Position numbers and translations under genes: made by a program. A stretch of DNA of 64,000 nt from a virus: the IMG/VR virus record IMGVR_UViG_3300005077_000004, positions 1 through 64,000 of that record. One strand, written 5' to 3'. The notes under the pieces are model-generated. The model saw nothing but the letters and a program-made list of their open reading frames with translations. It did no database searches and was not told where the DNA came from. Positions 3,693 through 59,153 of the stretch are shown piece by piece (within the stretch, counting starts at the first letter, position 1; each line of letters opens with the position of its first letter).

Positions 3693-3771
3693 TTCGTTTT
3701 CTCCTTTTAAGTGAAATTATATCTGAACTTATATGGTTTGTCAATACTAAATAAAAAGATTAGGAGAGAAA

Positions 3772-15379: not shown

Positions 15380-15573
15380 CCTTTCAAATTACGGGAACAA
15401 TCTCAACATCAACCCGACCAGGGACATTCGCGACAACAACTACTCGCTTTCCGAAGATTGCATCCAGGTTTCAAACAGACTTTATCAATGATCTCTTTCA
15501 CGATTTTGTCTTTCCTGCTTTATACAGAGAGATCACCTTCGCATCTCCACCCCGAGGTCCATCAATGATGTCT

Positions 15574-15915: not shown

Positions 15916-16217
15916 CTTTTCCCCTTTCGATCTTCATCCTCACAATTTAAGTATACATCATAAAACCCCTATGTCAAATCCTAAATTTTATTTTTATCAG
16001 GATATCAAATAAAGACTTATAAGAATTAAGGAGAATTTTCTTCCATCATCTCCGGTTCGTTCTGAGGAGTCAGATTGTTATATTCTCCAAATCCTCTACC
16101 CTCTGTTGTGGCAATATGAGCTAACGTAACTAACGTTAGAAATATGCCCCCAAGCAATAACAATCAAAACTTTGAGCATGAAATTTGACCCATTCTTCTG
16201 AGACATAGGATTCCTTT

Positions 16218-42041: not shown

Positions 42042-42704
42042 TCAACATAACATATACTTAAGAATATATTTACTTCTTCGGTTTATTATAGACCACTGCT
42101 TATTCGTTTTTATTCCTAACACGTTTGCGTAGTTGGTGTTAGGAGGACCATACGCTCGATTCTGAATGTAAGCAAGTGAATGATCCCAAACGTTAATCCC
42201 TGAGAGAAAAGATATAATCAAAGAAGTGATTTCGACTGTAATCTCTTCTTCATCGGGTTTGTTGAATTCGATCTTAGCTCGATACTTTCCGAGAGCGGCA
42301 TGAGTCAATTCGTGTAGAAATGTTTTGTAGAAGTATTTGTTGATGTGAAATCGAGAAGGTTTCGGAACATGAACAAAATCTATCTCACCTTTAGATTTTG
42401 AGTGATAGACATATTCAGGTCCAACTCTTTCCGTGAACACGATGCTAACTGGAAAGATTTGATTAAGACGATCTGATATCCGAGTGATTGTTTTTTCAAG
42501 ACGAGGGATGGGTTTGAATCTAATCTTTTCAACACCCCATGGTATCCAAAACTCTTTTGCTTTTCGTTTGATAACAATATCTTGAATAGAGTCTACCGCA
42601 GCATCCACAATCGAATCAAGTTGATATGTTTCAACCGAAAAGGGATCCACACCCCTAACGATGCTTTTCTTCTTGACCCTAGTTATAAGATCAGATGTCC
42701 GCAT
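42042..42704 (-). CDS. ArdC-like zincin metallopeptidase-domain protein
   Basis: FYKTFLHELTHAALG...DEEEITVEITSLIISFLSG parallels the ArdC C-terminal pattern (LHELxHxTGH...EELVAELGAAFL, recalled from memory). Confidence 0.45.
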   Translation of the reverse strand: MRTSDLITRVKKKSIVRGVDPFSVETYQLDSIVDAAVDSIQDIVIKRKAKEFWIPWGVEKIRFKPIPRLEKTITRISDRLNQIFPVSIVFTERVGPEYVYHSKSKGEIDFVHVPKPSRFHINKYFYKTFLHELTHAALGKYRAKIEFNKPDEEEITVEITSLIISFLSGINVWDHSLAYIQNRAYGPPNTNYANVLGIKTNKQWSIINRRSKYILKYMLC

Positions 42705-43271: not shown

Positions 43272-44231
43272 TTAAAGACCTAATTGTTTCTTAGCATCGT
43301 TTTTGAGATTGGATATCATACTATGGAATGATGATACAAAACCTTTTTGGTCTGTCTTATATTCTCCTTTCCAAGCATGATAATGAAGACTTTTGTTTTC
43401 TTGAAACGAGATATCCCCATTTAACATAGTATAACCTTTATACTTCCCCGTACTTAACATTTCATAATCATCAAACAATTGTATTTTGAGAGATGTTTTC
43501 AGATGCGGAAACCTCTCAAAAACACTTCCAATCCAGTACACATCACCCCGAGGAAGGTTCCAATAATATTGACATAGGTGTGGTTTATAAATCGTATTGT
43601 ACAATTCCATATTGAATGTGACCAACCCAACGTTCATTTGCTTCTTCATTTCGTTGTAAAGGATAGTCCAACAAAATGAATCAGGATTACGAGAAACATT
43701 GTTCATAATATACTGACAACACGGTTGAATTGATATTGTATCCGTGTCTACGATAATTCCATATTTTGTCGTAACATAATCCAAACCATGATACTTGGTT
43801 CTGTAACCTATACCCAAATTGAATGGATGGGAATTAACGGAATGAAAATGTCGAATCAAATTTACATATTGTGATTCGAGATAGAATAGCTTAGTATAAT
43901 CAGATTCGAAAATCTCTTTATCAGATAAACCAAACAATCTCATAATCAAAATTGGATAATTCTCTTCCCGCTCAGGTTTCTCCCTTTCTAACGAAAAAGG
44001 AAGCGGAGAATCCCACCCAATAACTATCTTAGGAATTACTGGTTCCGTAATGATAACGCTAGAAGCCATCAATATAGCATGAATTTGAAGATCCAAAAAC
44101 CCATGACCTTTTCCTCGCATGAACCCGCAAGTCCAAGTCAGATCTGAGTGAATGGGTTTATTTGTGATCTTTGAGGCTAAGGACCATAACTCGAAAGCTT
44201 CCGAAGCAAACTCGTCATATATTAATCCCAT
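43272..44231 (-). CDS. hypothetical protein, possible glycosyltransferase (start uncertain: 44231 or 44288)
   Basis: IIVDTDTISI DxD-like motif. The assignment rests mainly on location in the glycan island. Confidence 0.35.
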   Translation of the reverse strand: MGLIYDEFASEAFELWSLASKITNKPIHSDLTWTCGFMRGKGHGFLDLQIHAILMASSVIITEPVIPKIVIGWDSPLPFSLEREKPEREENYPILIMRLFGLSDKEIFESDYTKLFYLESQYVNLIRHFHSVNSHPFNLGIGYRTKYHGLDYVTTKYGIIVDTDTISIQPCCQYIMNNVSRNPDSFCWTILYNEMKKQMNVGLVTFNMELYNTIYKPHLCQYYWNLPRGDVYWIGSVFERFPHLKTSLKIQLFDDYEMLSTGKYKGYTMLNGDISFQENKSLHYHAWKGEYKTDQKGFVSSFHSMISNLKNDAKKQLGL

Positions 44232-44907
44232 AATTTTCCTTTGTGTGCGAACAAAAAAACTTTTTAAACTCGTTTTTAGGGTTTTCAATAATGTCTTTAT
44301 TAATTCTCTTCGAAAAAATATTCAAATCTTCGTGACTAGGAGAATGAATTTCACAATGATAGTAACGAAGTCGATCCCACATTTGAAATTCAGAAAAGAC
44401 TCTATACTCAGATCCCTCAATGTCAATCTTAATTATATCAACATTTAATATCTGATTTAGATCAAAAAAACTATCCAACGTCATCGCTTGAACCGGAATG
44501 TTTCCATCTGTTTCGGACACACGAGATGCTCCTGAATTTCTCCTAATCGTTCGATCCATCAAATACCTATATCCACTTCCAATACACAAGCGGAACGAAT
44601 GAATGGTGTTTTGTAATTCATACAACTCAATATTCTTTTGAAGACACTCGAAAACACTTGGATGTGGTTCGATTGAATAAATTCTTAGATTTTCGCTTTT
44701 CAGAAGAAGAGACAACAAAATAGAAACAACACCAATGTTTGCTCCTAAATCGATAACCGTAGAAATACCTATTCTACGTTTTTGAACAAAATCGATAATC
44801 TGTCTGGACGTTCTTAGTCCCGTTCGAAGACAAACATCTCGTTCGCATTGTTGAGGAACGAAGAAAGTATAAAATTGATCGTTGAGTTTGATTTCTTTTT
44901 TATGCAT
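44215..44907 (-). CDS. FkbM-family SAM-dependent methyltransferase
   Basis: VIDLGANIGVVS and IKIDIEGSEYRVF signatures. Confidence 0.7.
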   Translation of the reverse strand: MHKKEIKLNDQFYTFFVPQQCERDVCLRTGLRTSRQIIDFVQKRRIGISTVIDLGANIGVVSILLSLLLKSENLRIYSIEPHPSVFECLQKNIELYELQNTIHSFRLCIGSGYRYLMDRTIRRNSGASRVSETDGNIPVQAMTLDSFFDLNQILNVDIIKIDIEGSEYRVFSEFQMWDRLRYYHCEIHSPSHEDLNIFSKRINKDIIENPKNEFKKFFCSHTKENYGINI

Positions 44908-46391
44908 TAGTAAAGTCTCAATATTGGTTTATTATCCAAATATCTCTGATAAGCCTCCGACCAAGATTTCGATATGACCGCTTCGTTTGTTCTCTCTTGA
45001 CAATCGGTAGGGCTATGACCGCAATACTTACAGAGAACCTTTATCTGCTCGAAGAGTGACCGGTAATCGACCAGATTAAGTTTCTTTATACCAATATCGA
45101 ATCCGAAAACTCTTGCCAACGAAGCACCAGCACCACAAGGAAAATATCCATAACGAGAGAGACCGATTCCACATCTCCATGGAATATCACAGAAGGGAGT
45201 TATTAGATGTCCAAAATCGCACGGTGCTTTGTTATAGGAAGTAAATACCAAAGACTCTTTCTTGTCCTTAGATGAATTTCTAATCTTTACCCATTTCGGA
45301 ATTCGATTGATTACTTCATTGGTAAGCTTTCCAACCCCATTTGTTGAAAAGCGAATTCGACATTCCGAAACAACATCTTTGTATTCTTTTATGATTTCAA
45401 AGATAGAATCGATCTCAGGGTGCAATGTAGGTTCCCCACCAATAAGATCGATGCGAACCCACTTTCGATTCTCTGACAAAGATTCATCAACGAATTGATG
45501 GATCTGTTGAACCGACATATGTTCTTGAGAACGGGCATTCCCACATGATCTATCACAGTTCTTACATCTCATATTACAGTCGGTTGTCAATTCGAGTTGA
45601 ACTTTGTTTAACAGATTTTGTTTGTACCCATACCCATGTTTACGAGATAAATAAATTTGCTTCTTGGTGTTAAGGAATGATCCGTCGAATGCAAAAATCG
45701 GAGTAACTGATTGAATGAGTCTTCGATATTTCGATCCGATACACACACCCTTCTTTTTCAGATTAGAGGATGCCCAAGTGCGGTGGGGAAGACGCTCTGC
45801 CATATACCAAAGAAAGGTATCGTGACTAGGTATCGGAAGTCGTTGACCGGCAAGATACGCGCACTCGTCAACAAAGTCTTTGTTATGAAGACACATAAAC
45901 GATATTATACGCTTGCATCCTATAGCTGGTTTATTCCAATCGAAATCAGGTCTATACGGTTCACCAGAAAGATTCTTCAAATCAGACCACTCGTTCAATT
46001 CTCTTATCCACGTTGCCGGTTTAGTATACCCCCAGCGATGCGAAAATAAGTCATATTTGAAATCATCTTCAGAGAAAACATTTTCTTCAGAAATGAAATG
46101 ACATTCTGAGTCCAATTTAACCCAATGAGGGGTCTCGACATATTTTCCAGTTCCAAGAACAAATGCCGAGAATATCTGTTCTCTCTTTGGTATATCCGCA
46201 TTCATATTCCAATCAATCACTCTAACATTTTTTCCAAGATCTTTGAAATGCTTTTCTGGTCTTTTGTATCCATGTGTAAACAGAAGTATCGGGGAAATCC
46301 GAAACTGTTCTTTCAATCTCCAGGTTGGAAGACAAAGACGAAGTTTCTTTTCGTAGTCAGGTGTGGTTGCAGTGACTATAGTAAATTCCAT
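44907..46391 (-). CDS. fusion protein: N-terminal GT-A-like domain + C-terminal radical SAM domain with an extra Cys cluster (SPASM-like)
   Basis: N-terminus: FTIVTATTPDY...KLDSECHF. C-terminus: LELTTDCNMRCKNCDRSCG (CX3CX2C), IDLIGGEPTLHPE, then CDF...CDIPWRCG...FPCGAG...CKYCGHSPTDC. Confidence 0.7.
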   Translation of the reverse strand: MEFTIVTATTPDYEKKLRLCLPTWRLKEQFRISPILLFTHGYKRPEKHFKDLGKNVRVIDWNMNADIPKREQIFSAFVLGTGKYVETPHWVKLDSECHFISEENVFSEDDFKYDLFSHRWGYTKPATWIRELNEWSDLKNLSGEPYRPDFDWNKPAIGCKRIISFMCLHNKDFVDECAYLAGQRLPIPSHDTFLWYMAERLPHRTWASSNLKKKGVCIGSKYRRLIQSVTPIFAFDGSFLNTKKQIYLSRKHGYGYKQNLLNKVQLELTTDCNMRCKNCDRSCGNARSQEHMSVQQIHQFVDESLSENRKWVRIDLIGGEPTLHPEIDSIFEIIKEYKDVVSECRIRFSTNGVGKLTNEVINRIPKWVKIRNSSKDKKESLVFTSYNKAPCDFGHLITPFCDIPWRCGIGLSRYGYFPCGAGASLARVFGFDIGIKKLNLVDYRSLFEQIKVLCKYCGHSPTDCQERTNEAVISKSWSEAYQRYLDNKPILRLY

Positions 46392-47145: not shown

Positions 47146-48032
47146 GATTTAGTTTTGACTATATCGAAAATATTGTTCTTATGTTTTCTATACATCTTAT
47201 CATCGTAATCATTCTCCAGGACATTCATCCCCACTTTATCAAAGACCCCCTGGATTAGACACTGTTCGAAATAATACAACCATATAAGGGAGTGATGGAG
47301 CGGAAACCCTTCATCTGAGAACCGACAATGTTTTTTTCCGTGGAAATGAACTACTACCGGATAAGCGGGATCATCGATCTTATCATCGTACTTACATGAA
47401 CAGTTGAATGCGGACTCTAGAAGTTTATGTGGATATTTCGGAAGGAGAAGCTGCATACACGTTTCGTCAGCTATAAACGATTCTCTCCCCACCACAGCAC
47501 GATCATACCACACCTTCATTATCTGAGAATCTTTGCGGAAGCCGAAGCATCCACAATTAATTGCGCTTCCGTAGTCGAGAGCAGGACCAACAAGATTTGG
47601 ATGATGTTGATTCCAATACTTAATTCTTTTCGAAACAACCCCACCCTGCGTTCCCCAATTAGCGAAGTGAGCGATACTGAATTCGTGTTCCTTTGCTGTA
47701 GCTATGAACTCAATTATTCGTGGAGACAAAACAACGGTATCAGAATCCAATGAGACTGAGACGTCGAACGGAGTAACAGTATGATATTTCGTTCGTTCTA
47801 GAAACACAAGATTCTTTCCAGGAGGAACGTCAAGATCTAAAACTTGAATACCGCAATCAAAATGCTCTGCTATTCTTTCGCAAGTTTTGATAGCAAACGT
47901 CTGAACATTAACATCTCGCTTCGGATAATACAATAGAATATCTCCGTCATATACTTGACGAAGAGAAAACATCGACACCACCATTCGAATTAAACAAGAC
48001 ATTCCTGAGTTGTAGTAAACGATCCCGTTCAT
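47142..48032 (-). CDS. putative GT8-like glycosyltransferase
   Basis: GIVYYNSG...SLRQ, SLDSDTVVL (DxD), AINCGCFGFRKD. Confidence 0.5.
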   Translation of the reverse strand: MNGIVYYNSGMSCLIRMVVSMFSLRQVYDGDILLYYPKRDVNVQTFAIKTCERIAEHFDCGIQVLDLDVPPGKNLVFLERTKYHTVTPFDVSVSLDSDTVVLSPRIIEFIATAKEHEFSIAHFANWGTQGGVVSKRIKYWNQHHPNLVGPALDYGSAINCGCFGFRKDSQIMKVWYDRAVVGRESFIADETCMQLLLPKYPHKLLESAFNCSCKYDDKIDDPAYPVVVHFHGKKHCRFSDEGFPLHHSLIWLYYFEQCLIQGVFDKVGMNVLENDYDDKMYRKHKNNIFDIVKTKS

Positions 48033-49180
48033 TTCTTCTTTCCCTTCTTCTCCTTGTCCTCTCTATCATAGAGACCTTCTGTTCTTTCATTCTCAGTATC
48101 AGGCATGAGAGCGGTCGCTGCTTCTATTGCTTCATTGAAAGCTACCTTTGGAAATACCTCTAGGTGTGAATTCCGATTGCAATTGAAAATGTGATAATGA
48201 TATTTTTCAAATATAGGTTTCAGTTCCTCAAATCTCTTGGTTAACATCTTATAGGTTGAATTGTTTCCATTGACAGATCCTTCAGATCTATCCTGTTCGA
48301 AGTTGTAGTTTTGTTTGCCATATTCCATCTTGAAGTCGCAACCGAGAAGGAAAACATTTCTTACTCCCAAATAAAATAAAATGCGGAGTGCGGCAAGAAG
48401 TACACTTCTCGATCCAAATTCTCTGCTCCCACACTTCGGACAGACCTTGATATCAATTCCGTCCTTTTTCTTATCCGGTCTCCAATAACCACAATGGCAG
48501 AGATTACTATGGTTCCCCCAATTGATGGTATCTTCAAAAAGGAACTGGCTGGCAACAAAATGTTCGTTCCGTCGATAATAGAAAACACTTGGAGCATCAC
48601 CAACAACCATGCTCATTTCTTTCCATGCTTCATTATCGAAGATATTCTTCTCTGCCGCAGATGTTGGGGCAAATTTGATTATGGTGGGATCTAACCAAAT
48701 TGATTTGATGAAGTGAGCGGGTTTATCAACACAAACCCAAAGATTCGGACGAAATGTTTTGGCAGAGTTATTCACACCCATCGTTAGAATTCCGGGTGTG
48801 CGAAGGGCATCTAAATTAAGCTCAAGTAAGCTCGGACCACCGAGAATTAGAAATGCTGCCGCCCCTCGGTACATATCACCTATAAAAACACTATGCCCAT
48901 CTCTGGTAAACAAGAGAGGAGGAGTTTGAATATAGTGACCTATACGAAAACCTTCATATCGATCCCGACCGTCCCACAAAAGACCTCGGTCGTTCTTATC
49001 CTCCACGGTTGATCTACTTCTTGGAGGAGTCTGAACCTTCTCGGTAGGTGATCTCTTTTCAGGTTCAACCTCTTCTGGTTCCTCGTTTTTGGTTATTTCT
49101 TTCTCAACATTTTGAACGATTGCTTGTTCTTTTATTCTCTTCCATTCATCCAGCGTCCACTTTTTGACGCTTTCGGACAT
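48029..49180 (-). CDS. DUF115/Maf-like (MptE-like fold) putative glycosyltransferase with an inserted Zn ribbon
   Basis: AAFLILGGPSL...ILTMGVNN...VCVDKP...YLGVRNVFLLGCDF. Insert CHCGYW...VCPKCGS. Confidence 0.5.
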   Translation of the reverse strand: MSESVKKWTLDEWKRIKEQAIVQNVEKEITKNEEPEEVEPEKRSPTEKVQTPPRSRSTVEDKNDRGLLWDGRDRYEGFRIGHYIQTPPLLFTRDGHSVFIGDMYRGAAAFLILGGPSLLELNLDALRTPGILTMGVNNSAKTFRPNLWVCVDKPAHFIKSIWLDPTIIKFAPTSAAEKNIFDNEAWKEMSMVVGDAPSVFYYRRNEHFVASQFLFEDTINWGNHSNLCHCGYWRPDKKKDGIDIKVCPKCGSREFGSRSVLLAALRILFYLGVRNVFLLGCDFKMEYGKQNYNFEQDRSEGSVNGNNSTYKMLTKRFEELKPIFEKYHYHIFNCNRNSHLEVFPKVAFNEAIEAATALMPDTENERTEGLYDREDKEKKGKKK

Positions 49181-49192
49181 TCTTGACTCCTA

Positions 49193-50326
49193 TTATTCGT
49201 AATCTCGTACAATCAAACCAACCGGAAACCGAGGAATCCCATCATCCGTCAATTCGAAATATCTAACTGTCATCATTTTTCCGATGTACTGGTTCCCATT
49301 CTCAAACCAGTCTTTTCGTTCCCCTTCGGTTCCCCTCGGTCGAACACTGAATTCTTTTCCACTTTTAGTCTTACATTTCCAAATCACAGTACCCTTAGCT
49401 CTACCCTCACCTTCGGTAAATCCGACAATTTCAAACTCGTCATCTTTGAAGTTCTTATACTTCTGGAGATCTTTTGATCTCTTATTGACAGAATAAACCC
49501 CATCCATATTTCGGAGTATCAGCCCTTCATAACCTTCTGAAACAAAGAAGTCGTGATACTTCTTAATATCGTCCTCATTTTTAATCAGAACGTTTTCGGT
49601 AAGTTTGATCGACTTACAATTGACACTTTCAAGAAGACCACGAAGATGTTGATAACGGGTTATAAAAGGAACCTTTGGATTGTCTGGAAAAATAGAATCA
49701 TACAAACGATAGCATATCTTTCGCATATCGTTTGTATCTTCTTCTGCGAGAGTTTCTTTCTTGACCAACCCAACTGTTCTTTGAAATGTGAGGTCGTCTG
49801 AATAAAGTTCACCATCAAAGATTATTTGACCGCTACAAAGCTTTTTGAGTTGGAGGATAGGTTCGAACAAATGTTCCAGATGCGGAAAAATCTTTCCTTT
49901 CCTCGACATAAGAACGACATTGTTATTTCCTAAAACGAACGCAAGGCAACGAACCCCGTCAAACTTTCTTTGCCCTATACAAGGAAACTTCATATCCTTT
50001 CCACGCTTATCGTAAGAATGGGCAAGCATAGGAAGATAAACAACAGTATCTACGTTGTCCAGAGACTCAACATATCCCTTATCTTTTTGCTTCTTCCACT
50101 TCGACTCTGCTTCGCTCCTAGCTTGATCGAACGGGGTGGTTTCGTTTTCTTTCCCGATATTTTTACCCTTCGTTATCTCTTTGACGTCTACTTGCTTTTT
50201 TCCGTCCTGGTATCCATGAACGATAGTAATTATCCCCTTATCAGCACAATCACCATCAACCTTAATCTCCCATTCGGAGATTTTTCCGGTAGACGACTTC
50301 TTATAGAGAATCGGAAAAGATATCAT
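49193..50326 (-). CDS. ATP-dependent DNA ligase
   Basis: Motif I GQRKFDGVRC (KxDG), III IFDGELY, IV YEGLILR, V LQKYKNFKDDEFEIVG, OB-domain tail GIPRFPV. Start MISFPILYKK preceded by AGGGAGAAACA. Confidence 0.85.
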   Translation of the reverse strand: MISFPILYKKSSTGKISEWEIKVDGDCADKGIITIVHGYQDGKKQVDVKEITKGKNIGKENETTPFDQARSEAESKWKKQKDKGYVESLDNVDTVVYLPMLAHSYDKRGKDMKFPCIGQRKFDGVRCLAFVLGNNNVVLMSRKGKIFPHLEHLFEPILQLKKLCSGQIIFDGELYSDDLTFQRTVGLVKKETLAEEDTNDMRKICYRLYDSIFPDNPKVPFITRYQHLRGLLESVNCKSIKLTENVLIKNEDDIKKYHDFFVSEGYEGLILRNMDGVYSVNKRSKDLQKYKNFKDDEFEIVGFTEGEGRAKGTVIWKCKTKSGKEFSVRPRGTEGERKDWFENGNQYIGKMMTVRYFELTDDGIPRFPVGLIVRDYE

Positions 50327-50336
50327 TGTTTCTCCC

Positions 50337-50897
50337 TTAGAGTAGAAGACCAATAGGTTGATCTCGATCAACCTCTTCAACAACCGAAATCAACTCTTTC
50401 AAATTATCCAAAAGATTTTCAAGATCACTAGAATCGCAAACCTGAACCGCTACCTCGTAAACCTCAAGAAGTCGATCATATTCCTCTTCTGAAGCAACGT
50501 AGTTTTTATGATTGTCTGACGAATTCTCGTCGTCCTCTTCGTCTTCTTCGTCGTCCTCTTCGTCTTTGTTTTTTCGGTTAGCGTGGAGAAGTTCATTGAT
50601 CTCGTCAATATAAGCATTAACTTCTCCTGGATTAAGATTACAAGGGTGATATATAGTAACCTTTTTTCCATTATATAACTTTCCTTGGGTCGCTGAATAA
50701 TCCGCATTAACAAACAACCCGTTCGGATTCATTCCATCTTCTTGAATAGCTTCTCGGACCTCATCGACCGAGACCTTTGAATTCGGAAGATACGTCAGGA
50801 TCTTCTTCCAAATTTCATAGGTTGTGAACAATCTCTTCATAACCATCTTCTGTGAAATTTCTTTCTTAACGATATCTTGTAGAATTTCTTTTTCCAT
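50337..50897 (-). CDS. hypothetical protein with an acidic tract (186 aa)
   Basis: ORF between the PARP and ligase genes. Contains DEEDDEEDEEDDE. Confidence 0.5.
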   Translation of the reverse strand: MEKEILQDIVKKEISQKMVMKRLFTTYEIWKKILTYLPNSKVSVDEVREAIQEDGMNPNGLFVNADYSATQGKLYNGKKVTIYHPCNLNPGEVNAYIDEINELLHANRKNKDEEDDEEDEEDDENSSDNHKNYVASEEEYDRLLEVYEVAVQVCDSSDLENLLDNLKELISVVEEVDRDQPIGLLL

Positions 50898-50940
50898 GAT
50901 TTTCTCCTTTTGTTAAATTGTACCAGATTTTGATTCAGAG

Positions 50941-52251
50941 TCAATTAAATTCTATTAGGTATTTTGGATTGCATTGATGAATTTTGTAGACAATCATTTC
51001 GTTGTTTAGTACACCAGAAACCCCGGCTTTAGCGAAGCAGGAATCATATCCATCGGGAAGTTTTCTAAACCCACGATTAGTCGGAGTGTATTCTTTTCCC
51101 ATCGCGACATCAAACAGAAACATGAAGCAATGACTGCTTCTGGATCCTGACCAATATCCATAAGAATAATTAAGACTCTTCGTAGATTGGTCGCTGAAAT
51201 AAGCACCATCACCAAACATTCTTCCGGTACAATAGGATGCCGAAGATGGGGGAATGTACAACCCCTTCGCTAGAATCGAAAGAATGTTTCCTATCCTGGT
51301 TCCATGCCAAAGTTCTCGCACGTTCCCAATCTTAAGACCTTGATGTTTGTATTCCTCATTCATCTTCTTATGGTGAACAGTGTACACTTTTTTCATTGAT
51401 AGGTTACGACACGAATGTCTATCGTTCTTCGTATTCAAAAAGAACTTTAGAAGTCGATCAAACTCTTTCTTGTCTTCGAGAAGACCGACCCGAACACCAA
51501 AATCCAACTCCTCTTTCTTCTCGTCTTTGGAATCTTTTGGAGCATTCAAAACGTCAAGACTCGCTTGAAGTGAATCAAGAATCGAAGAAATCTGATCAAA
51601 CTTATTCAGATCATGGCAGAGAGTTTTCAAGGTTGGTCTTTGACGTCCAATATCTTGAGGGATCAACATCATGAATTCTTCTGCCAATCGGTCTCCGCTT
51701 TTGTTGTTGAATTGATTCTTTTCAACAAAAGGTTTGATATTGCTCAAAACAAGTCTTGCTTGATCGATACTGTTTTGACCGACGACACCTAGAGGGGTCG
51801 AAAACAATCCTGTCGTTTCATCATACTTAAGTGTGGTATTACTTGTAATGTTGTGAATGTTCTCTCGATCAAGAAGGGAGATTAGGTTTTCTACTTCCTT
51901 GTTTCCATCTCCTATCTTTTTCCATACGTCTTTCCCAAGTGACTTCTTCGAAGGCATAGAGACATGATCCACTGTTCCAACGATATCAACTTCCTTGTAG
52001 CAAGAATCCCTCTTACCACCTTTTGCTTTCCCACGTTCTTTTTTCTTAATCAACTTCTCAGCTTCTTTCAACGCTGCATCGGAAGATCCAAAATTCTTAG
52101 TAGTTGATGCTCCGGAATCTCCAACCCGACCATATTCAGTTTCAAGCGTACCATCATCGTACACCTTGATACTCCAAAACTTATTATGACCGGCTGTTCC
52201 GAATTCAGAGTCAGTGCAAATGAATTTCTTGCTCAGAACAAGATTAGACAT
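50941..52251 (-). CDS. poly/mono(ADP-ribose) polymerase, eukaryote-type WGR + helical regulatory + ART catalytic domains
   Basis: WGR: HNKFWSIKVYDDGTLETEYGRVG. Helical domain: FMMLIPQDIGRQRPTLKTL (compare PARP1 FYTLIPHDFGMKKPPLL). ART: LWHGTR (H), GAYFSDQSTKSLNY (Y), NNEMIVYKIHQCNPKYLIEF (E; compare PARP1 [20 protein letters not shown]). Confidence 0.8.
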   Translation of the reverse strand: MSNLVLSKKFICTDSEFGTAGHNKFWSIKVYDDGTLETEYGRVGDSGASTTKNFGSSDAALKEAEKLIKKKERGKAKGGKRDSCYKEVDIVGTVDHVSMPSKKSLGKDVWKKIGDGNKEVENLISLLDRENIHNITSNTTLKYDETTGLFSTPLGVVGQNSIDQARLVLSNIKPFVEKNQFNNKSGDRLAEEFMMLIPQDIGRQRPTLKTLCHDLNKFDQISSILDSLQASLDVLNAPKDSKDEKKEELDFGVRVGLLEDKKEFDRLLKFFLNTKNDRHSCRNLSMKKVYTVHHKKMNEEYKHQGLKIGNVRELWHGTRIGNILSILAKGLYIPPSSASYCTGRMFGDGAYFSDQSTKSLNYSYGYWSGSRSSHCFMFLFDVAMGKEYTPTNRGFRKLPDGYDSCFAKAGVSGVLNNEMIVYKIHQCNPKYLIEFN

Positions 52252-52255
52252 AAGT

Positions 52256-52609
52256 TCATCCTTGGAATGGAGGAGGCATAGCACCTGGAACAATAATCTT
52301 GCTTCGTTCTCTCTCTTGATGTTCTTGTGCTTGCTTCTTCATCTCTTCAATCATTTCTTTGGCAATCTGAGGAACCTTCTCCTGCTTTGTAAGTTCGAAC
52401 TTTTCGAAAGCTTCCTCTATTGTTTCAGCCTCAATGTCAAATCCAACAGGTCTTTCTATCTCTCCCATAGGTGTATGAAACCCTACCACAGCATGACCTT
52501 GAAAATCTATCTTGACACCCTCCGACATTGCTTTCGGAGTCGGAACATAAGCTGTGATTTTTGCTCCACTTTCATCATCGATGTAGTTATAAACGATCCG
52601 TATAGACAT
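52256..52609 (-). CDS. hypothetical protein (117 aa)
   Basis: Start MSIRIVYNY forms a TAATG junction with the upstream SEC-C gene. Confidence 0.5.
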   Translation of the reverse strand: MSIRIVYNYIDDESGAKITAYVPTPKAMSEGVKIDFQGHAVVGFHTPMGEIERPVGFDIEAETIEEAFEKFELTKQEKVPQIAKEMIEEMKKQAQEHQERERSKIIVPGAMPPPFQG

Positions 52610-52980
52610 TACAATCCCCTTCCACAACAACGCTTAAACTTTTTCACCTGTCCCTTCTTCGGACCATCCTCATACTTCGATCCACACGGACACGGTTTAT
52701 TCGGTTTCGGCATCTTGAGAGGTCCAACCGCATGAGGTTTTACACCCCACTCTTTGTATTTCGCCTCACATCTCTTGATATAATCATCTTGTTCTTCGTT
52801 GGATGCTTGTTTTGGAAGATCGTAAACCTTGAATTGACCCCTTCTCGGTTTCTTCCCCATCTTCAAAAACGCTTGATACTCTTGATGGGTTCGAAGACTC
52901 TTAAACGGATCCTTCGTTGGTTCTTTGACTTTCTCAACAACCTCGGGTGGTTGGAATTGATTTTCCTGTTCTTCTTGCAT
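52609..52980 (-). CDS. SEC-C motif protein
   Basis: PCPCGSKYEDGPKKGQVKKFKRCCG, a split CPCGS...KCCG metal-binding motif. Confidence 0.6.
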   Translation of the reverse strand: MQEEQENQFQPPEVVEKVKEPTKDPFKSLRTHQEYQAFLKMGKKPRRGQFKVYDLPKQASNEEQDDYIKRCEAKYKEWGVKPHAVGPLKMPKPNKPCPCGSKYEDGPKKGQVKKFKRCCGRGL

Positions 52981-52992
52981 TTTTACGCTCTC

Positions 52993-54024
52993 CTAAAATG
53001 TTCCATCTATAATATTCAGGAACCGATCTCGAATAAATGTGGATACTACCATATTGATTCTTTTGTTTATCGTCTTGTTCTGACTGACGTCGAACTTTGA
53101 GAATTTTTCTTCGTGGTCTTTCCGTAAATCGCTAATGACGTCCTGTGAAAACATTCCGAGAAGCTTGCCAAACATTTTATCGGTCACTTGACCAACCTTG
53201 GACAAAACGCTTCGAAGTCTATTCTCATTGATATATGAATCAACCAGATCGAGAATCTCTTGCTCTTCGGGTGATAGAGCAGAAGCAACCTTTGTTTGCT
53301 TCAACGATGTTTTATCCTTAGAAAGATTCTCGGAGAACTTTTCATTCTTGTTTTTAAGAATGACTCGCGACCCGCACGGAAAAATTCTATCGATGACAGG
53401 TTTGATCACCACACCTTCACATATATTATTTTCAATTGGAGGAAGACCTAACACGTTTGGAATCGTGGTCGGAAATTCATTCGGATAAGCGATTGAGTCT
53501 TGGAAGAATCCTCGATAGAGAGCTTTCGCATATAAGAAACCAAGTTCTTTCATGCAACCTTCGAAGATATCATAATTGACAAATCGACCTTGAACCTTCA
53601 GATCGAACGCATAAAAATCATTCTTCGGAGAGTAATAAACACCTTTCTGAACGGTCGTAGACTTGGTATCTCTCTCTATTGAAGGGTGGGGATAGTTGCC
53701 ACCAAAAATTTCACCGAAAAGAGCTATTTCATAACTCTCTATTTTTAGATTGAAGACTTCTCCAACCGCTATATAGAGTTGCTTCAGACGATCATAATAA
53801 AGATCGGCAACTCTTTCCCAACCATAGAAGTTATCGTCTTCTCTCAAGAAGGTAGTTCGTTTGGCATATCGAATACCTTCTCGATTCATCCAGAAGGAAA
53901 AATTAGATCCGTGGACCTTTTCGGTCACGACCCATTCCCCATACGACAAACCGTATTGGATTATATCATTGATAGTCTTTATTCGATAAGAATTTTCTAT
54001 CGAAGGATATTCTTTGAATTCCAT
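52993..54024 (-). CDS. RNA ligase, Rnl2 (T4 RnlB)-like
   Basis: Motif I VTEKVHGSNF, III LFGEIFGG, IV CEGVVIKP, V VILKNKNEKF, plus a C-terminal helical domain. About 340 aa. Confidence 0.75.
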   Translation of the reverse strand: MEFKEYPSIENSYRIKTINDIIQYGLSYGEWVVTEKVHGSNFSFWMNREGIRYAKRTTFLREDDNFYGWERVADLYYDRLKQLYIAVGEVFNLKIESYEIALFGEIFGGNYPHPSIERDTKSTTVQKGVYYSPKNDFYAFDLKVQGRFVNYDIFEGCMKELGFLYAKALYRGFFQDSIAYPNEFPTTIPNVLGLPPIENNICEGVVIKPVIDRIFPCGSRVILKNKNEKFSENLSKDKTSLKQTKVASALSPEEQEILDLVDSYINENRLRSVLSKVGQVTDKMFGKLLGMFSQDVISDLRKDHEEKFSKFDVSQNKTINKRINMVVSTFIRDRFLNIIDGTF

Positions 54025-54275
54025 TCTTCTTTCCTTTTGGATAAATCAGAACGACAGAGATCTTCCATAGCTATCCAGTATTGAGAACACACCACAGTCT
54101 TCGGAAAGTCTTCTCGTAGAAGACGGTCAAACCACCCCTCCCGATAACCAGAACATTGTCCGGTTGTATAACCGTAGCGGAACACCAAACCAAACAACAC
54201 GAGAAGCACCATCACAAATAATGGTGTCAATGTTAACCAGAATCGATAACAACGAAATTGCATATAAACCCTCAA
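53997..54275 (-). CDS. possible membrane protein (92 aa)
   Basis: Hydrophobic helix LTLTPLFVMVLLVLFGLVF. Confidence 0.35.
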   Translation of the reverse strand: MRVYMQFRCYRFWLTLTPLFVMVLLVLFGLVFRYGYTTGQCSGYREGWFDRLLREDFPKTVVCSQYWIAMEDLCRSDLSKRKEEWNSKNILR

Positions 54276-54345
54276 TATATGTGAAGGATTATAGCATACT
54301 ACAGAAAAATTGTCAAGTTATTTTTTGTGATTCTGGAATGGTTTT

Positions 54346-54927
54346 CTACTGTCCTTTGAAAAATTCATCCTTCGAACTGTGTCCGGTCAGATTGTAACCC
54401 AACTTATTCAATCTTTTCAAAACCCTATTATGTATTTCTTTGTTCAAAGATTTTACTTTATACCAATGCCACTCGCAGTATATTTTTTTCACGTATCCTG
54501 GCAGGAGATGTGCATCGAGAAGTGCTTCGAAGAGGTCGTATTCTTTTCCCTCAACATCCACTTTCAACGTGATTTCGTCACCTGAAATAAACGTGTTACG
54601 AAAGAAATGTCGAATATCCATACAAGTAACTTCTATTTCTGTTTGGCGGGTCATCTTCTTATCTTTGCAGAGAGAAGATCCCATGGTATTTTTGGGATCG
54701 AAATAAAATGTGGTTTTGATTTGTCGAGTATCGTCTTTCAGTTTATCAAGAGCAAGAGGAATGATTGTGTAGGTTTCTTTACGATCCTTCAGTAGAGCTT
54801 TTATCTTATCAGTCATTTCTGGAATAGGCTCAACCCCAATATACCAATCAAACGGTGGAAGCTCTTCCATAGCTTTAAGAAGAGTCTGCCCACGATGCGC
54901 TCCGATGTCCAAGAAAATCTTACGCAT
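54346..54927 (-). CDS. FkbM-family methyltransferase
   Basis: IFLDIGAHRGQT and LKVDVEGKEYDLF. Confidence 0.65.
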   Translation of the reverse strand: MRKIFLDIGAHRGQTLLKAMEELPPFDWYIGVEPIPEMTDKIKALLKDRKETYTIIPLALDKLKDDTRQIKTTFYFDPKNTMGSSLCKDKKMTRQTEIEVTCMDIRHFFRNTFISGDEITLKVDVEGKEYDLFEALLDAHLLPGYVKKIYCEWHWYKVKSLNKEIHNRVLKRLNKLGYNLTGHSSKDEFFKGQ

Positions 54928-54936
54928 ATTCTCTCC

Positions 54937-55593
54937 CTACAATTCTAATGTGTAATTGAATGCTTTCAAATCTCTACCCCAATGAGTCTCTACCAAACGC
55001 TTCGCTCCCGGATTCTGTCTGTAATGCTCCCGCCAATCTACGCCGCGAGATGCTTGTGATGTATTCTGTTTCAATAGAGTGATTGGTTTCACACCAATAC
55101 ACTCGCAAACAGTATCGAAATCAGATTGAAGATTTTCAAACCTACCAACAAAGTCTACCATCACCTTTCCCTTCGCATTACAAATGAAGGAATGCTGGGA
55201 TCGGATAGGAGAACATTCATCGTACCTTCGTCCTACATCGGTTCGATAATATGAAACAACCTCTTCGAAATTATCCATCGTCATAATTCCATTTGCTGGC
55301 ATTTGACTTCTTTTAACCTTGACCCAAAAGAAAAATGAGGATACCACCCACGAAAACGGATTCCGAACGAACGTGAACTTAAAACATTTATTCCACAGAT
55401 CTGATCCGATAACTCTCTTAATGTGTCGTGCTGGCATATGCTTATCATATAAACGCCAATCACCCTTATTCAACTTCGCGGGTTCAAAGTGCGTCATATC
55501 GGGAATAGTTAATAGTGCTGCTCGAATTGAACCTGTTGCGTTCCTTCCACCAGAAACGTAAACGTATTTGTGACTCTTAGAGACCATTGACAT
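54937..55593 (-). CDS. sulfotransferase (Sulfotransfer_2-like)
   Basis: YVYVSGGRNATGSIR (degenerate 5'-PSB) and FTFVRNPFSWVVS (3'-PB). Start at the internal MSMVSK. Confidence 0.55.
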   Translation of the reverse strand: MSMVSKSHKYVYVSGGRNATGSIRAALLTIPDMTHFEPAKLNKGDWRLYDKHMPARHIKRVIGSDLWNKCFKFTFVRNPFSWVVSSFFFWVKVKRSQMPANGIMTMDNFEEVVSYYRTDVGRRYDECSPIRSQHSFICNAKGKVMVDFVGRFENLQSDFDTVCECIGVKPITLLKQNTSQASRGVDWREHYRQNPGAKRLVETHWGRDLKAFNYTLEL

Positions 55594-56539
55594 TTGTTTT
55601 CTCCACCTGTATTCCAACCTCTGATAAATCAATCTTGGTTACAAGATCCCGTCCTTCTTGATATTTGGCAGCGGTTCCATACTTTCCGTTGTTATGATAA
55701 ACTCTTAACCAATCTCTAGGGTTTCGAGCTATACCTTTATATTTTGGGAAGACTGCAATGCTTTCGTTTTCTAAGATGTATTGGTTGATCTTCTCCGGAT
55801 TTTCTTTCAAGATGCCAACATTAGCATATCTCTCTGCTTTCATTTTTGTGTATGGATCAGAACGATACATTTCCGTTCTCTGGCAAAGCTCTGAGATTAT
55901 GTCGGAGTGCCATCGAATATGTCTGATGGGAATTATTTTCTGAAGAGGTTCAAACTCAACCATATCCCTAATCTTAATATTGTGATAGGATCCTCGTTCA
56001 CGCTTGACGATAAACTTTGAAAGCGGAACCTTTTCTATTTTCACACCCAACAAATCTTGCGAAAGAAGAGTTGGAATCGAAAACTTCTCTATCAGGTTAT
56101 CGCCATCTTCAACCACATCAAAAACACCAGCAGACGAAACCATATCCACTAAGAAAGAAACAACATAATCAACCTTCTTTTCGATTAACGAATCGATGAA
56201 ATCTCTCATAGAAAGATTTTTTGGAGGAACAAAAAATTCGTCCGAATCAACAGTCAGAACCCAATCCTCACTCGTCAATTGATTCCCGATATGATTGTTG
56301 ATTAATCGAATATATGCGTTTCTTTCGTTCGAATGATAAGTTCCTATCCAAGGGTAAAAGAAGAAGTTGACCTGGGATTGCGTTAAGAAATCACAAAAAG
56401 TTTGAATATCCGAATCGGATCCATTGAGAATGAGGTAGAAAAAATCAACACCCAATGCTTTATAATATTCAATAAACTTCTGAGCAAAAAGCTTTACGCG
56501 ATTTTGAACGTTAACTACAGATATCAAACTCAGATTCAT
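55577..56539 (-). CDS. GT-A glycosyltransferase (GT2/GT92-like)
   Basis: ISVVNVQN...YYKALGVD and WVLTVDSDEFF (DxD). Confidence 0.55.
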   Translation of the reverse strand: MNLSLISVVNVQNRVKLFAQKFIEYYKALGVDFFYLILNGSDSDIQTFCDFLTQSQVNFFFYPWIGTYHSNERNAYIRLINNHIGNQLTSEDWVLTVDSDEFFVPPKNLSMRDFIDSLIEKKVDYVVSFLVDMVSSAGVFDVVEDGDNLIEKFSIPTLLSQDLLGVKIEKVPLSKFIVKRERGSYHNIKIRDMVEFEPLQKIIPIRHIRWHSDIISELCQRTEMYRSDPYTKMKAERYANVGILKENPEKINQYILENESIAVFPKYKGIARNPRDWLRVYHNNGKYGTAAKYQEGRDLVTKIDLSEVGIQVEKTNVNGL

Positions 56540-56547
56540 ATCATCCC

Positions 56548-57159
56548 CTAGAATAAATTATCTGTATTTCTCTTATATCGTTCAGAGAATACTATTTCGT
56601 TCTGAGGAATCCCAACAAAATTGTCAAACATCTTGAGAGCAATAAATTCCAATAGCTTTGAATTTCGACGATTAACAATCTGTTTCAGACAGAGATGATA
56701 GCTGTTCATCGAACAAAACGCTTCCGGGAAATTCTCTTTGTAGTGGTAAGGGCAATGTCCAATCCAATAACCGTCTAGAGGAATTGAATGCACCATCACT
56801 CCTGTAGATTTCAACATCTTGTCGATATTACGAAATGCCTCTTTTTGATTTTCCACATGCTCGGTTGTTCCGTAATTCGTCACCATGTCAAACTGCGAGA
56901 CAAATTTCTTTGGGAGGGATTTGCAAAGGTCCAGCTTGACTGCACCGTCTAGAGCATTCAAATCAAAACTCACATGTTTCGCCCCCTTTGATTTGAACCA
57001 TTCTTTGGCAACGCATTTCTTGTATTCCTTTCCGTTCGGTCCAACAGCAAGAATCTTTTGGTTTCCAAGTTCTGCAACAGATAATCCGGATAAGGAATCT
57101 CGTTCCAGAAAAGAAACCGCTTTATCAATCAATTTAAGATTGTTTTGGTTAATGGACAT
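56548..57159 (-). CDS. class I SAM-dependent methyltransferase
   Basis: VAELGNQ (motif I variant) and FDMVTNYGTTEHV. Start MSINQNN preceded by GGAG. Confidence 0.5.
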   Translation of the reverse strand: MSINQNNLKLIDKAVSFLERDSLSGLSVAELGNQKILAVGPNGKEYKKCVAKEWFKSKGAKHVSFDLNALDGAVKLDLCKSLPKKFVSQFDMVTNYGTTEHVENQKEAFRNIDKMLKSTGVMVHSIPLDGYWIGHCPYHYKENFPEAFCSMNSYHLCLKQIVNRRNSKLLEFIALKMFDNFVGIPQNEIVFSERYKRNTDNLF

Positions 57160-57733
57160 TGTAATTGAGTCTCCTAAAATCTTCTTCATACAGTTTAGCA
57201 ACAATCTTTTTCATTTCCGGATCATACGATTTCGTCCACGGTTTGTGGTGAGTCTTTTTCCTCGATGGTAGATTTATCATTGGGAACGAATGTTTTCTGA
57301 GAAATTTTTTCCAATCATGATCAAGCGATTCAAATCGGATTAAATCAGTATACAATCTTTTCTCTCCGTTGAATAGCCAGCGGCAAGCCGGATGGAAAAA
57401 CTGATTGCGTTCGTATATCCGATGTATATCCATACAAAAATCTCGAAATGATGGATAATCAAAAATGTACTTTAAACTCGAATTCTTTTTGTCTTGTTTA
57501 CATTGAATGATATAGTTGTATGCGCTAAAGAGTCTACCGAAAGGGTTACGAACAGATGCTACAATAATAGGATTCTCTGGAAGCTTTCTATAATATTCAT
57601 TTATTATGGCAGTCGTTTTTGCATGACCATGCCGATTCATTTTAATTCTCTTCTTATCTCGTAAGGTTAACAAACCAGTTTCGATTGATGTGGAAGCTGT
57701 CTTTGGAATCCGAATCTGTATCACTCGTTGCAT
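57149..57733 (-). CDS. sulfotransferase (Sulfotransfer_2-like)
   Basis: IRIPKTASTSIE (5'-PSB) and VASVRNPFGRLFSAY (3'-PB). Confidence 0.65.
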   Translation of the reverse strand: MQRVIQIRIPKTASTSIETGLLTLRDKKRIKMNRHGHAKTTAIINEYYRKLPENPIIVASVRNPFGRLFSAYNYIIQCKQDKKNSSLKYIFDYPSFRDFCMDIHRIYERNQFFHPACRWLFNGEKRLYTDLIRFESLDHDWKKFLRKHSFPMINLPSRKKTHHKPWTKSYDPEMKKIVAKLYEEDFRRLNYNVH

Positions 57734-58343: not shown

Positions 58344-59153
58344 TTATTGATCTTTCTGTAAAATCGTTCGGGTAACTTTCGTAATATAGCGACCGATAGA
58401 CTCCGGAGAAAAGTAATCTCTCCAGCAAACTTTCATCTTTTCGTGAATCTCAAGAAGCTTTTCATCGGTGATCGAATCGAGGATCCCGCCTAATTCATCC
58501 CAATTATTTACATAGAACGCTGGACAATTTTTAAAAGCTCTTGCTTTCATCGGATGTGGGCAAGCAACGATTGCACTCGCACACTTTACCGCTTCTGAAA
58601 ATCTAAGACACTCACACCGCACCATCCCCTTTGGACTCAAAACAATCTTAGCTTCTTGCATATACTGAGAATACTTTTTGATGTTCATTCCACCCTTAGT
58701 ACCCATGAACCTCTGTCCAGAATCAAAAATAAAACAGTTCTTTGAAGGGTTTCTATCTCTCCATCTCAACGCATTGTCCCACATGTCTTTTCTTTTTGGA
58801 GTTCGACCGATGAATACAACATCGTATTTTCTTTCGAGTATCGGAATCGAATCATCTCCGGTAAACCCACCAACATAAGGAAGAGGAATATGGTAGACGT
58901 TTCCAATGGAGTTATCATTCAAATGATGTTTAAAAACCAACCCCACTTTGTCTTTGTAGACTGGAGGAACCCCTCTCTCGTCGCCTGCGGTCAAAATCGC
59001 GATAACGTTTTTCCCATACTTCGGAAGCTCTTTGTAATTGAACGAAGCAATGACGGTCTTGTCTTTGAAAACCTCTTCATCAAAATATTTGTACATAATG
59101 TTGAAGTATTCGTGTTCAATATAATGATCCGGAAGCAAATTTATCAGTTCCAT
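58344..59153 (-). CDS. GT-B-type glycosyltransferase (exostosin/GT1 C-terminal-like)
   Basis: YDVVFIGR...IVLSPKGMVRCECLRFSEAVKCASAIV resembles the donor-binding half of GT-B enzymes. Confidence 0.5.
   Translation of the reverse strand: MELINLLPDHYIEHEYFNIMYKYFDEEVFKDKTVIASFNYKELPKYGKNVIAILTAGDERGVPPVYKDKVGLVFKHHLNDNSIGNVYHIPLPYVGGFTGDDSIPILERKYDVVFIGRTPKRKDMWDNALRWRDRNPSKNCFIFDSGQRFMGTKGGMNIKKYSQYMQEAKIVLSPKGMVRCECLRFSEAVKCASAIVACPHPMKARAFKNCPAFYVNNWDELGGILDSITDEKLLEIHEKMKVCWRDYFSPESIGRYITKVTRTILQKDQ

Follow-up and report, generated by a model that had tools for sequence, protein, structure and literature searches.

Poly(ADP-ribose) polymerase (PARP) enzymes have a central part in the DNA repair of eukaryotes and rank as major drug targets; what is known of their relatives in prokaryotes and viruses comes only from sequence surveys and from two in vitro studies. 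Two bacterial enzymes that combine a WGR domain, a helical regulatory domain (HD), and an ADP-ribosyltransferase (ART) domain are active in vitro, and the one from Herpetosiphon is DNA-dependent and makes poly(ADP-ribose) (PMC4245714, PMC8120803, PMC5966428). As for phages, Aeromonas phage Aeh1 and Cellulophaga phage phi4:1 are on the list of PARP carriers given by Perina et al. (2014) (PMC4245714), Iyer et al. described PARPs in jumbo phages and put the family with the commonest ARTs of viruses (PMC7824862, PMC9503650), a 2024 survey recorded PARP in gut jumbo phages encoding synthesis of nicotinamide adenine dinucleotide (NAD+) (PMC11662467), and phage PARPs were also treated in a 2023 paper (PMC10789625). 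Full-length phage PARPs have been annotated in the Xanthomonas phages XacN1 (ORF414, BBA65562.1) and Xoo-sp13 and in Klebsiella phage FBKp34 (gp111); the Stenotrophomonas phages RAS14 and CM1 have full-length homologues, and in the PARPs of Cellulophaga phages phi4:1 and phi17:2 the match is confined to the catalytic half. The literature search found no experimental study of any phage PARP. Here, we describe a PARP gene and the gene directly downstream of it in the virus record IMGVR_UViG_3300005077_000004. The window, i.e., the whole stretch of DNA that was analysed, comprises 64,000 nt (positions 1-64,000 of the record); it originates from a 191,782-bp JGI metagenome contig, from which the exact PARP protein is on record.

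The PARP gene of the window very probably encodes an active and regulated PARP-type enzyme. The enzyme itself is largely known: it is a new divergent member of a catalogued family that is already present in GenBank annotation, in PHROG, and in surveys published from 2014 to 2024. What is new here is the conserved pairing of the PARP gene with a partner gene, of which no description was found in the literature or in the searched libraries. With moderate confidence, we read the PARP as a break-activated ADP-ribosyltransferase that would mark or manage broken phage (or host) nucleic acid in replication, recombination, and repair. The gene and its parts are located as follows.

50941..52251, minus strand: PARP gene, from ATG at 52251 to TGA at 50941-50943, 436 amino acids (aa)
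51976..52242, minus strand: WGR domain, residues ~4-92 (Pfam core, residues 20-73, at 52033-52194)
51544..51939, minus strand: helical regulatory domain (HD/PARP_reg), residues ~105-236
50944..51471, minus strand: ART catalytic domain, residues 261-436
51304-51306, 51199-51201, and 50998-51000, minus strand: codons of the triad residues H316, Y351, and E418

The ATG at 52251 is located 4 nt past the stop codon of the upstream open reading frame (ORF), with an AAGGA motif ahead of it. An alternative TTG start at 52293 was rejected, because the homologues begin at the same MS..V position as ATG 52251. All three domains are recognised by Pfam over the curated cut-offs: WGR (PF05406) at residues 20-73 with an E-value of 8e-13, PARP_reg (PF02877) at residues 118-245 with an E-value of 5e-8 (33.5 bits against a cut-off of 26.8), and the PARP catalytic domain at residues 261-405 with an E-value of 2e-27. 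The family profile is collinear in a single stretch with PARP2 (8e-48, profile positions 8-384) and with the WGR-CAT part of PARP1 (1.2e-46). Sequence matches of the window PARP in the PDB are to PARP1, PARP2, PARP3, and PARP4, the best single one being the PARP1 catalytic fragment (1.6e-24). The AlphaFold2 (AF2) model, built with 43 relatives, has a mean predicted local distance difference test (pLDDT) score of 85.9. In this model, WGR is a beta-sheet with a helix (pLDDT 84-95), and helices span residues 105-236; the HD aligns to the PARP1 helical domain. In the Foldseek search of the PDB, the best matches were the structures of PARP1 WGR-CAT on a DNA double-strand break (4opx_C and 4dqy_C), which cover all three domains with a template modelling (TM) score of ~0.65; PARP2 on DNA was matched as well, and TM scores for PARP1 and PARP2 ranged over ~0.6-0.65. 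Thus, the three modules that an earlier note on this DNA, made from the letters alone, had recognised are borne out by profile, alignment, and predicted fold. Pfam detected none of the N-terminal zinc fingers Zn1-Zn3 and no BRCT domain of PARP1, and the WGR domain begins at about residue 4. The R-S-E motif and ARTC fold of the T4 Alt/Mod type are absent; the H-Y-E triad is present, and all matches are to ARTD/PARP proteins.

The motifs of the active site are LWHGTR at position 314, YFSD at 351, and NNEMIVY at 416. They are aligned by phmmer with LWHGSR, IYFAD, and YNEYIVY of human PARP1, respectively, and KSLNY is aligned with KSANY. In this way, H316, G317, Y351, K358, S359, Y362, and E418 align with H862, G863, Y896, K903, S904, Y907, and E988 of PARP1, in the numbering that we take from general knowledge of the human enzyme. 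All of them except S359 stay unchanged throughout 43 relatives, whose identity goes down to 33%. The conservation of the triad, as the earlier note had read it, is therefore confirmed, and neither the triad nor the NAD+ pocket is lost in the alignment. The WGR motif takes the form Y40-G41-R42 and is preceded by the conserved N23-K24-x-W26; among the same relatives, K24 and G41 are invariant, and N23, W26, and R42 are conserved in at least 90%. In the HD, L169 and L228 are invariant. Two core leucines of the HD control DNA-independent activity in PARP2/3 and are kept in bacterial PARPs (PMC5966428). Judging by the alignment to PARP1, L169 and L228 would be the equivalents of these de-repression leucines. 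The conservation of catalytic, WGR, and HD residues is in keeping with an active enzyme under regulation. A vestigial gene, i.e., a PARP that was acquired horizontally, is in decay, and has lost any part in catalysis, is scarcely credible: the reading frame is intact, the catalytic and pocket residues are kept throughout the relatives, the family is large, the model is confident, and the operon partner is conserved.

The earlier note called poly(ADP-ribosyl)ation possible, which is a fair statement, but the triad is no proof of it. PARP3 possesses H-Y-E and yet carries out mono-ADP-ribosylation only (PMC10789625), so the synthesis of chains cannot be read from the triad. Moreover, in the acceptor-loop segment (residues 404-412 of the window PARP), PARP1 is longer by ~26-27 residues.

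The PARP homologues are numerous. In a large protein collection, 2017 of them were found at E <= 1e-10, the best 120 all having ~430 aa and the same Pfam architecture; clustering at 50% left 383 representatives at E <= 1e-30. The median length of the retrieved homologues is 433 aa, compared with 436 aa for the window PARP. The phrog_23333 profile matches the window PARP at 6e-60 over residues 20-435. Full-length tblastn matches were detected at 68 loci in IMG/VR, many of them on contigs of 300-550 kb, and at 56 cellular loci in GTDB, in Armatimonadota, Acidobacteriota, Planctomycetota, and Cyanobacteria and on megaplasmids of Pseudomonas and Paracoccus. The cellular loci include chromosomes of 5.7 and 6.1 Mb, and many bacterial chromosomal copies have 36-44% identity to the window PARP. 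The remark that such enzymes are very rarely reported in tailed phages thus does not hold, in view of the annotations in several phages, phrog_23333, the surveys of 2014-2024, and the IMG/VR loci.

The phylogeny that had been suggested as a check was built by neighbour-joining from the HD and ART domains of bacterial and viral copies, with human PARP1 as the sole outgroup and no support values. Viral and cellular sequences interleave in this tree, and PARP1 is a distant outlier. Over the same domains, the identity of the window PARP is 47-68% to its nearest relatives and 29.6% to human PARP1; the identity of PARP1 to members of the family is 22-33%. The WGR domain alone finds the bacterial WGR protein 2ra8 in the PDB (6e-4) ahead of the PARP3 WGR (0.08). 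The label "eukaryote-type" given in the earlier note is therefore right for the architecture but misleading as to the ancestry. By sequence, the window PARP is a member of a compact, ~430-aa bacterial and phage PARP family and not a stray eukaryotic gene. The loci give evidence that many large uncultivated phages carry compact PARPs and that these are exchanged with bacteria.

The longest homologue, P0242 (678 aa), contains an intein with a LAGLIDADG-type block directly after the KSLNY active-site motif. Inteins usually target conserved sites of functionally important proteins, and the position of this one suggests that the PARP gene matters. No PARP-partner fusion protein was found among 265 PARP homologues, the length of the longest being explained by the intein.

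The second gene of the pair follows the PARP gene.

50337..50897, minus strand: PARP partner gene, 186 aa, next gene downstream, beginning 44 nt past the PARP stop codon, with an AAGGAG Shine-Dalgarno site

The partner family was found by clustering all ORFs of 127 PARP loci, in which the PARP clades were defined at 70% identity (n = 82). Members of the cluster have ~209 aa, lie at a median distance of 50 bp from PARP, and are, with a single exception, encoded downstream of it on the same strand. Of the 47 loci that contain the family, 37 have it directly downstream of PARP at a distance of up to 1 kb; counted on the same strand and within 1.5 kb downstream, it occurs in 39 loci, which represent 32 of the 82 PARP clades. 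Among the 46 loci with the partner within 10 kb of PARP, 38 are viral or metagenome contigs and eight are cellular, and the partner-bearing loci are scattered over the PARP tree. The next commonest neighbour of PARP is a DNA ligase, found in 13 loci. A profile built from the downstream genes of the other loci, with the window excluded, matches the 186-aa ORF with an E-value of 5.7e-7, which improves to 7.6e-18 on iteration. A search with the single sequence of the window partner returned only itself, whereas the profile search for its relatives yielded at least five proteins. All three partner homologues from the partner profile search are located directly downstream of a PARP gene, one of them with a GIY-YIG homing endonuclease in between. 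When IMG/VR was scanned for the pattern of a partner sub-alignment, all seven occurrences were on PARP contigs, each already known as a PARP carrier.

In locus L132, a GIY-YIG homing endonuclease gene (3202-3921) lies on the opposite strand between PARP and partner, the pair being otherwise adjacent. Genes with GIY-YIG and NUMOD3 recur near PARP in viral loci.

Proteins of the partner family share an N-terminal domain of ~90 aa with the consensus "MFTAFDVT..LR...V.H..V", followed by a variable linker and, in most of them, a C-terminal module. This module scores as MazE/AbrB in four of the 28 members (L064 at 1.5e-5, over the Pfam cut-off; the other three weaker, among them L051 at 6e-4). The lineage of the window (the window, L003, and L004) has an acidic, helical tail in its place; in the window partner, an acidic stretch covers residues 111-124. 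The AF2 model of the partner, based on a five-sequence alignment, has a pLDDT of 45.5; residues 1-56 (pLDDT 65-77) form a helix-strand-helix-helix arrangement that is compatible with a winged helix. Searches of Pfam, PHROG, PADLOC, and the PDB gave no match for the window partner or for the N-terminal domain of the family, and the best hit of the PDB profile search was an insignificant one to Teb2 (E-value 0.55). A DUF4132 match of the window partner (E-value 0.089, in one of 28 members) was dismissed as noise. We infer that the partner is a co-factor, a regulator, or the main substrate of PARP.

Some proteins of the partner family, such as the one at 11093-12415 of L014, carry between one and three additional SH3-like repeats at the N-terminus (weak match to the Xrn1 SH3-like domain, 2.5e-5). 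The L014 phage encodes a second protein (15519-16151) made of these repeats.

The MazE/AbrB-type C-termini raise the question of a toxin-antitoxin-like or conflict module, in which PARP would be a potentially lethal effector, NAD+-consuming or triggered by damage, and the partner would restrain it or regulate the pair; such a module would serve abortive infection in bacteria and would be co-opted by phages, e.g., for superinfection exclusion or counter-defence. The two genes are tightly linked and travel together among phages, chromosomes, and megaplasmids, there are homing endonucleases and inteins in their surroundings, and the bacterial loci have no other gene context in common, as expected for a mobile two-gene cassette. 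Nevertheless, we regard this reading as very unlikely. The window partner itself has no AbrB-type domain, 44 of the 52 bacterial loci lack a detectable partner, and PARP already possesses an autoinhibitory domain of its own. The PADLOC search (PADLOC-DB v2, E <= 1e-3) gave no match for PARP, for the window partner, or for two other partners. Furthermore, a gene order with the enzyme first is atypical of MazEF-type pairs. The interpretation of the bacterial copies as parts of defence islands was rejected, since there was no PADLOC match and no recurrent defence neighbours were found.

The PARP-partner pair of the window is part of a packed, co-directional block on the minus strand, in which Rnl2, two small ORFs, PARP, the partner, and an ATP-dependent DNA ligase follow one another.

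52993..54024, minus strand: T4 Rnl2-type RNA ligase, upstream of PARP (RNA_ligase 1.3e-24, T4_Rnl2_C 3.1e-20)
52609-52980 and 52256-52630, minus strand: two small overlapping ORFs between Rnl2 and PARP, with no Pfam or PHROG match
49193..50326, minus strand: ATP-dependent DNA ligase (DNA_ligase_A_M 2.7e-21, DNA_ligase_OB_2 2.5e-12), its ATG 8 nt past the partner stop codon, with an AGGGAG Shine-Dalgarno site
54288..54316, minus strand: sigma-70 consensus promoter-like site (TTGACA, 17-nt spacer, TG, TATAAT; 12/12), upstream of the ORF 53997-54263 and Rnl2
50917..50944, minus strand: weaker promoter-like site (TTGACT, 16-nt spacer, TG, TACAAT; 10/12; consensus match only), which overlaps the stop codon of PARP and precedes the partner

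From PARP through the partner to the ligase, the genes are separated by gaps of 4-44 nt and are provided with Shine-Dalgarno sites. The order Rnl2...PARP...partner...DNA ligase is repeated in the relatives P0011/L003 and L004, whose PARPs are 58-67% identical to that of the window. Within 10 kb of PARP, an ATP-dependent DNA ligase occurs in 13 loci (nine clades), an Rnl1-type ligase in ten, and an Rnl2-type ligase in five, the median distances between ligase and PARP being ~0.8-1.3 kb and most distances not exceeding ~1 kb. The small ORF at 52609-52980 (123 aa) has a C-terminal Cys-rich, SEC-C-like motif "CPCGS...KRCCG", and the relative L003 has an ORF weakly annotated as SEC-C at the equivalent place between Rnl2 and PARP.

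Such a context would suit an enzyme that ADP-ribosylates the terminal phosphates of DNA or RNA breaks, either to protect or mark the ends or to block host ligation and exonucleases, with the adjacent ligases acting in the same end-processing pathway. In vitro, PARP1-3 are reported to ADP-ribosylate DNA ends in this way, and some PARPs as well as TRPT1 to do so with RNA ends. PARP is tightly set between Rnl2 and the DNA ligase, ligases of the three types recur near PARP in other phages, and single neighbours of other viral PARPs encode Ro60 or NADAR, a domain which we take to be a DNA ADP-ribose hydrolase. The shortness of the acceptor loop points to another acceptor site, and PARP2/3 require 5'-phosphorylated ends (PMC10789625). 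Even so, capping of ends is distinctly unlikely in our estimation: the sequence does not discriminate between nucleic-acid and protein acceptors, the association with ligases is weak after dereplication, and the conserved partner is more simply explained as a protein co-factor or substrate.

The ligases also bear on the manipulation of the NAD+ pool, by which a burst of NAD+ use would cripple the host LigA or NAD+-using defences while the phage would get by with the ATP-dependent ligase that it encodes. The DNA ligases linked to PARP, 13 in number, all cluster with the ATP-dependent ligase of the window, and isochorismatase/nicotinamidase-like genes (nine loci) and cytidylyltransferase-like genes (two loci) within 10 kb of PARP hint at local NAD+ recycling in some phages. 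This is purely circumstantial, and the idea is highly improbable: an autoinhibited, break-triggered enzyme would be a poor bulk NADase, and other jumbo phages with PARP carry NAD+-dependent ligases and NAD+ synthesis genes (PMC11662467). When the genes beside the PARP homologues (148 viral and 127 cellular) were tallied by Pfam family, no eraser or NAD+-salvage gene proved recurrent. Single genes for NADAR, NUDIX, and Ro60/TROVE with vWA were noted near viral PARPs (L054, L041, L132, and others), and none of them is family-wide.

The perfect consensus site at 54288-54316 may mark an early transcription unit read by the host polymerase, as far as a consensus match can indicate this; in the window overall, promoter-like sites are no more numerous than in shuffled sequence. 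Early expression by the host polymerase would be consistent with host take-over, a role proposed for the PARPs of jumbo phages (PMC7824862). The PARP would then modify host proteins, for instance RNA polymerase, nucleoid proteins, or translation factors, much as Alt/ModA/ModB of T4 do, but with ARTD chemistry and possibly with chains, and the WGR domain would be merely a DNA tether. The intact active site agrees with such a role, but we consider it unlikely, given that the conserved autoinhibitory HD and the WGR domain point to a triggered rather than a constitutive enzyme, that the neighbours are nucleic-acid ligases and not transcription factors, and that the same PARP family with its partner is found in bacterial chromosomes and megaplasmids, where a take-over would be senseless.

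In the break-activated reading that we favour, the WGR domain would bind a nucleic-acid break, and this binding would loosen or displace the autoinhibitory helical domain. NAD+ could then enter the H-Y-E pocket, and ADP-ribose would be moved onto PARP itself and onto nearby acceptors. The PARP would act with its conserved, putatively DNA-binding partner, in the same expression unit as the RNA and DNA ligases. The model builds on the observed architecture, fold, intact active site, HD core, gene pair, and ligase context, and the mode of action is probably, by analogy, that of PARP1/2/3 and of the bacterial PARPs that were tested. Of the roles put forward in the earlier note, the marking of breaks is the one to which the gene context lends some support. 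Activation by breaks, the targets, the addition of chains or of single units, and the benefit to the phage are what we infer beyond this. A more specific version is possible but doubtful: PARP and partner may together make up a two-component system dedicated to ADP-ribosylation in large phages and some bacteria, in which the putative DNA-binding partner would direct or complete the activity at breaks or would be the main acceptor, and which would be used in infection for broken DNA or RNA ends or for counter-defence.

A number of observations weigh against this picture. The activity and the DNA dependence of the window PARP are extrapolated from PARPs that do not come from phages. The WGR domain alone scores weakly against the WGR structures of PARPs, and its ligand could be RNA or something else. 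The residue N416, conserved in at least 90% of the family, stands where PARP1 has Y986, and together with the shorter acceptor loop this makes chain elongation uncertain. As for the partner, its N-terminal domain is predicted, at low confidence, to be winged-helix-like, with helix-strand-helix-helix plus a wing; the window protein aligns with the family over this domain only, with no MazE/AbrB-type C-terminus, and a partner was not found next to PARP in the isolated phages XacN1, FBKp34, and RAS14. After dereplication to the 82 clades, a DNA ligase is found within 3 kb of PARP in six clades, Rnl1 in three, and Rnl2 in four; the link of ligases to PARP is real but modest, and it could be due, at least in part, to the way in which phage genes for nucleic-acid functions generally cluster. 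The PARP block sits inside a cluster of glycan-modification genes. Finally, no eraser of the modification (PARG, macrodomain, or ARH) was seen in the scanned ORFs, which make up part of the 64-kb window.

The glycan-modification cluster occupies 42042-63818 on the minus strand and is a long, co-directional series of genes for enzymes that modify sugars and small molecules. The following genes were annotated in it.

42042-42704, minus strand: MPTase-PolyVal zincin-like metallopeptidase, 220 aa (8.9e-8)
44215-44907 and 54346-54927, minus strand: FkbM methyltransferases
44907-46391, minus strand: radical-SAM enzyme
48029-49180, minus strand: sialyltransferase-like protein
54937-55593 and 57149-57733, minus strand: Sulfotransfer_2
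55577-56539, minus strand: GT2/GT92 glycosyltransferase
56548-57189, minus strand: further methyltransferase
58344-59153, minus strand: RXYLT1-like protein

Such a toolkit of the sulfated-glycan type seems unusual for a tailed phage, and relatives carry similar genes.

The window belongs to a tailed phage, as is evident from the portal, the head-tail adaptor gene, the Shine-Dalgarno sites that precede the genes, and the sigma-70 consensus promoter. The portal and adaptor also substantiate the view of the earlier note that the PARP is encoded by a phage.

32708-34375: T4 gp20-type portal (Pfam 1e-74, PHROG 1e-77)

The portal is ~26% identical to T4-like portals, and megablast of the 45-60 kb part of the window against deposited phages found no similar DNA, so the source is a distant, uncultivated myovirus-like phage. 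A tRNA scan of the window detected no tRNA genes. In the plus-strand block at 24.5-42 kb, which contains the portal and head-tail adaptor genes, several large ORFs have no PHROG match, and this indicates that the phage is highly divergent. Among these ORFs, only two have Pfam matches: the beta-helix protein at 28134-30020 and the 827-aa DUF5661 protein at 36284-38767. The plus-strand gene at 4219-6231 encodes a 670-aa protein with DUF5662 (5.5e-26) and a P-loop kinase, for which there are matches to zeta toxin, AAA_33, and a polynucleotide-kinase PHROG; its PADLOC match to VakA is weak (1.2e-4). This kinase, located 46 kb from PARP, may form with Rnl2 a pair for the healing and sealing of RNA ends like Pnk/Rnl of T4.

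The window thus gives a clean and, judging from its residues, apparently functional example of PARP in a tailed phage and not a new kind of enzyme. The conserved partner gene and the ligase-rich context provide an experimental handle on the function of prokaryotic and phage PARPs. The PARP-partner pair could show what role PARP-type ADP-ribosylation plays outside eukaryotes and whether the regulation of PARPs by accessory proteins predates eukaryotes. If the two-component system is real, it would be a prokaryotic counterpart of the relationship between PARP and HPF1 or histones, and it would become the first demonstrated case of PARP-type signalling in phage infection, with a new family of accessory proteins.

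When the window PARP is compared with the known systems, T4 Alt, ModA, and ModB are similar in being NAD+-dependent ADP-ribosyltransferases of a phage; however, they belong to the R-S-E ARTC clade (PMC8120803) and have neither WGR nor HD. The PARPs of Herpetosiphon aurantiacus (HaPARP) and Clostridioides difficile CD160 (CdPARP), compared through their published descriptions, have the same order of WGR, PARP_reg, and PARP_cat, no zinc fingers or BRCT, and the H-Y-E triad (PMC4245714, PMC5966428, PMC8120803). In the compact family, the first position of the "WGR" motif is taken by Tyr, Trp, or Phe, ahead of an invariant Gly-Arg (PMC5966428). Most bacterial PARPs have Tyr in place of Trp in this motif (PMC5966428), as does the window PARP in Y40-G41-R42, and the HD leucines are conserved in HaPARP and CdPARP as well as in the window PARP. 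In contrast to these two enzymes, the window PARP is encoded by a phage and has a paired partner gene, which is not described for HaPARP or CdPARP; their genomes have PARGs that reverse the modification, whereas no PARG was seen near the window PARP. The annotated full-length phage PARPs have the same three domains and cover 98-100% of the window PARP at an identity of 32-35%, but their neighbours are different (a vWA protein, ribonucleotide reductase), and there is no downstream partner.

Tankyrase aligns with residues 285-435 of the window PARP in one stretch (TNKS2 chain 61-212), with a similar ART length and a short loop before the catalytic Glu; however, it has ankyrin repeats and SAM instead of WGR and HD, and the match is far weaker (8e-9). 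Human PARP2/3 share with the window PARP the collinear WGR-HD-ART order and fold, the H-Y-E triad, and the HD. They differ in that their identity to it is only ~20-30%, and the window PARP has no N-terminal tail, a shorter acceptor-loop region, and a WGR domain nearer to bacterial WGR proteins; phylogenetically, it stands outside the eukaryotic enzymes in a tree with a single outgroup. We know of no HPF1 in prokaryotes. Human PARP1 has in addition three zinc fingers, BRCT, and ~26-27 more residues before the catalytic Glu, whereas its catalytic fragment agrees with the window PARP in the length of the D-loop and in every NAD+-contacting residue.

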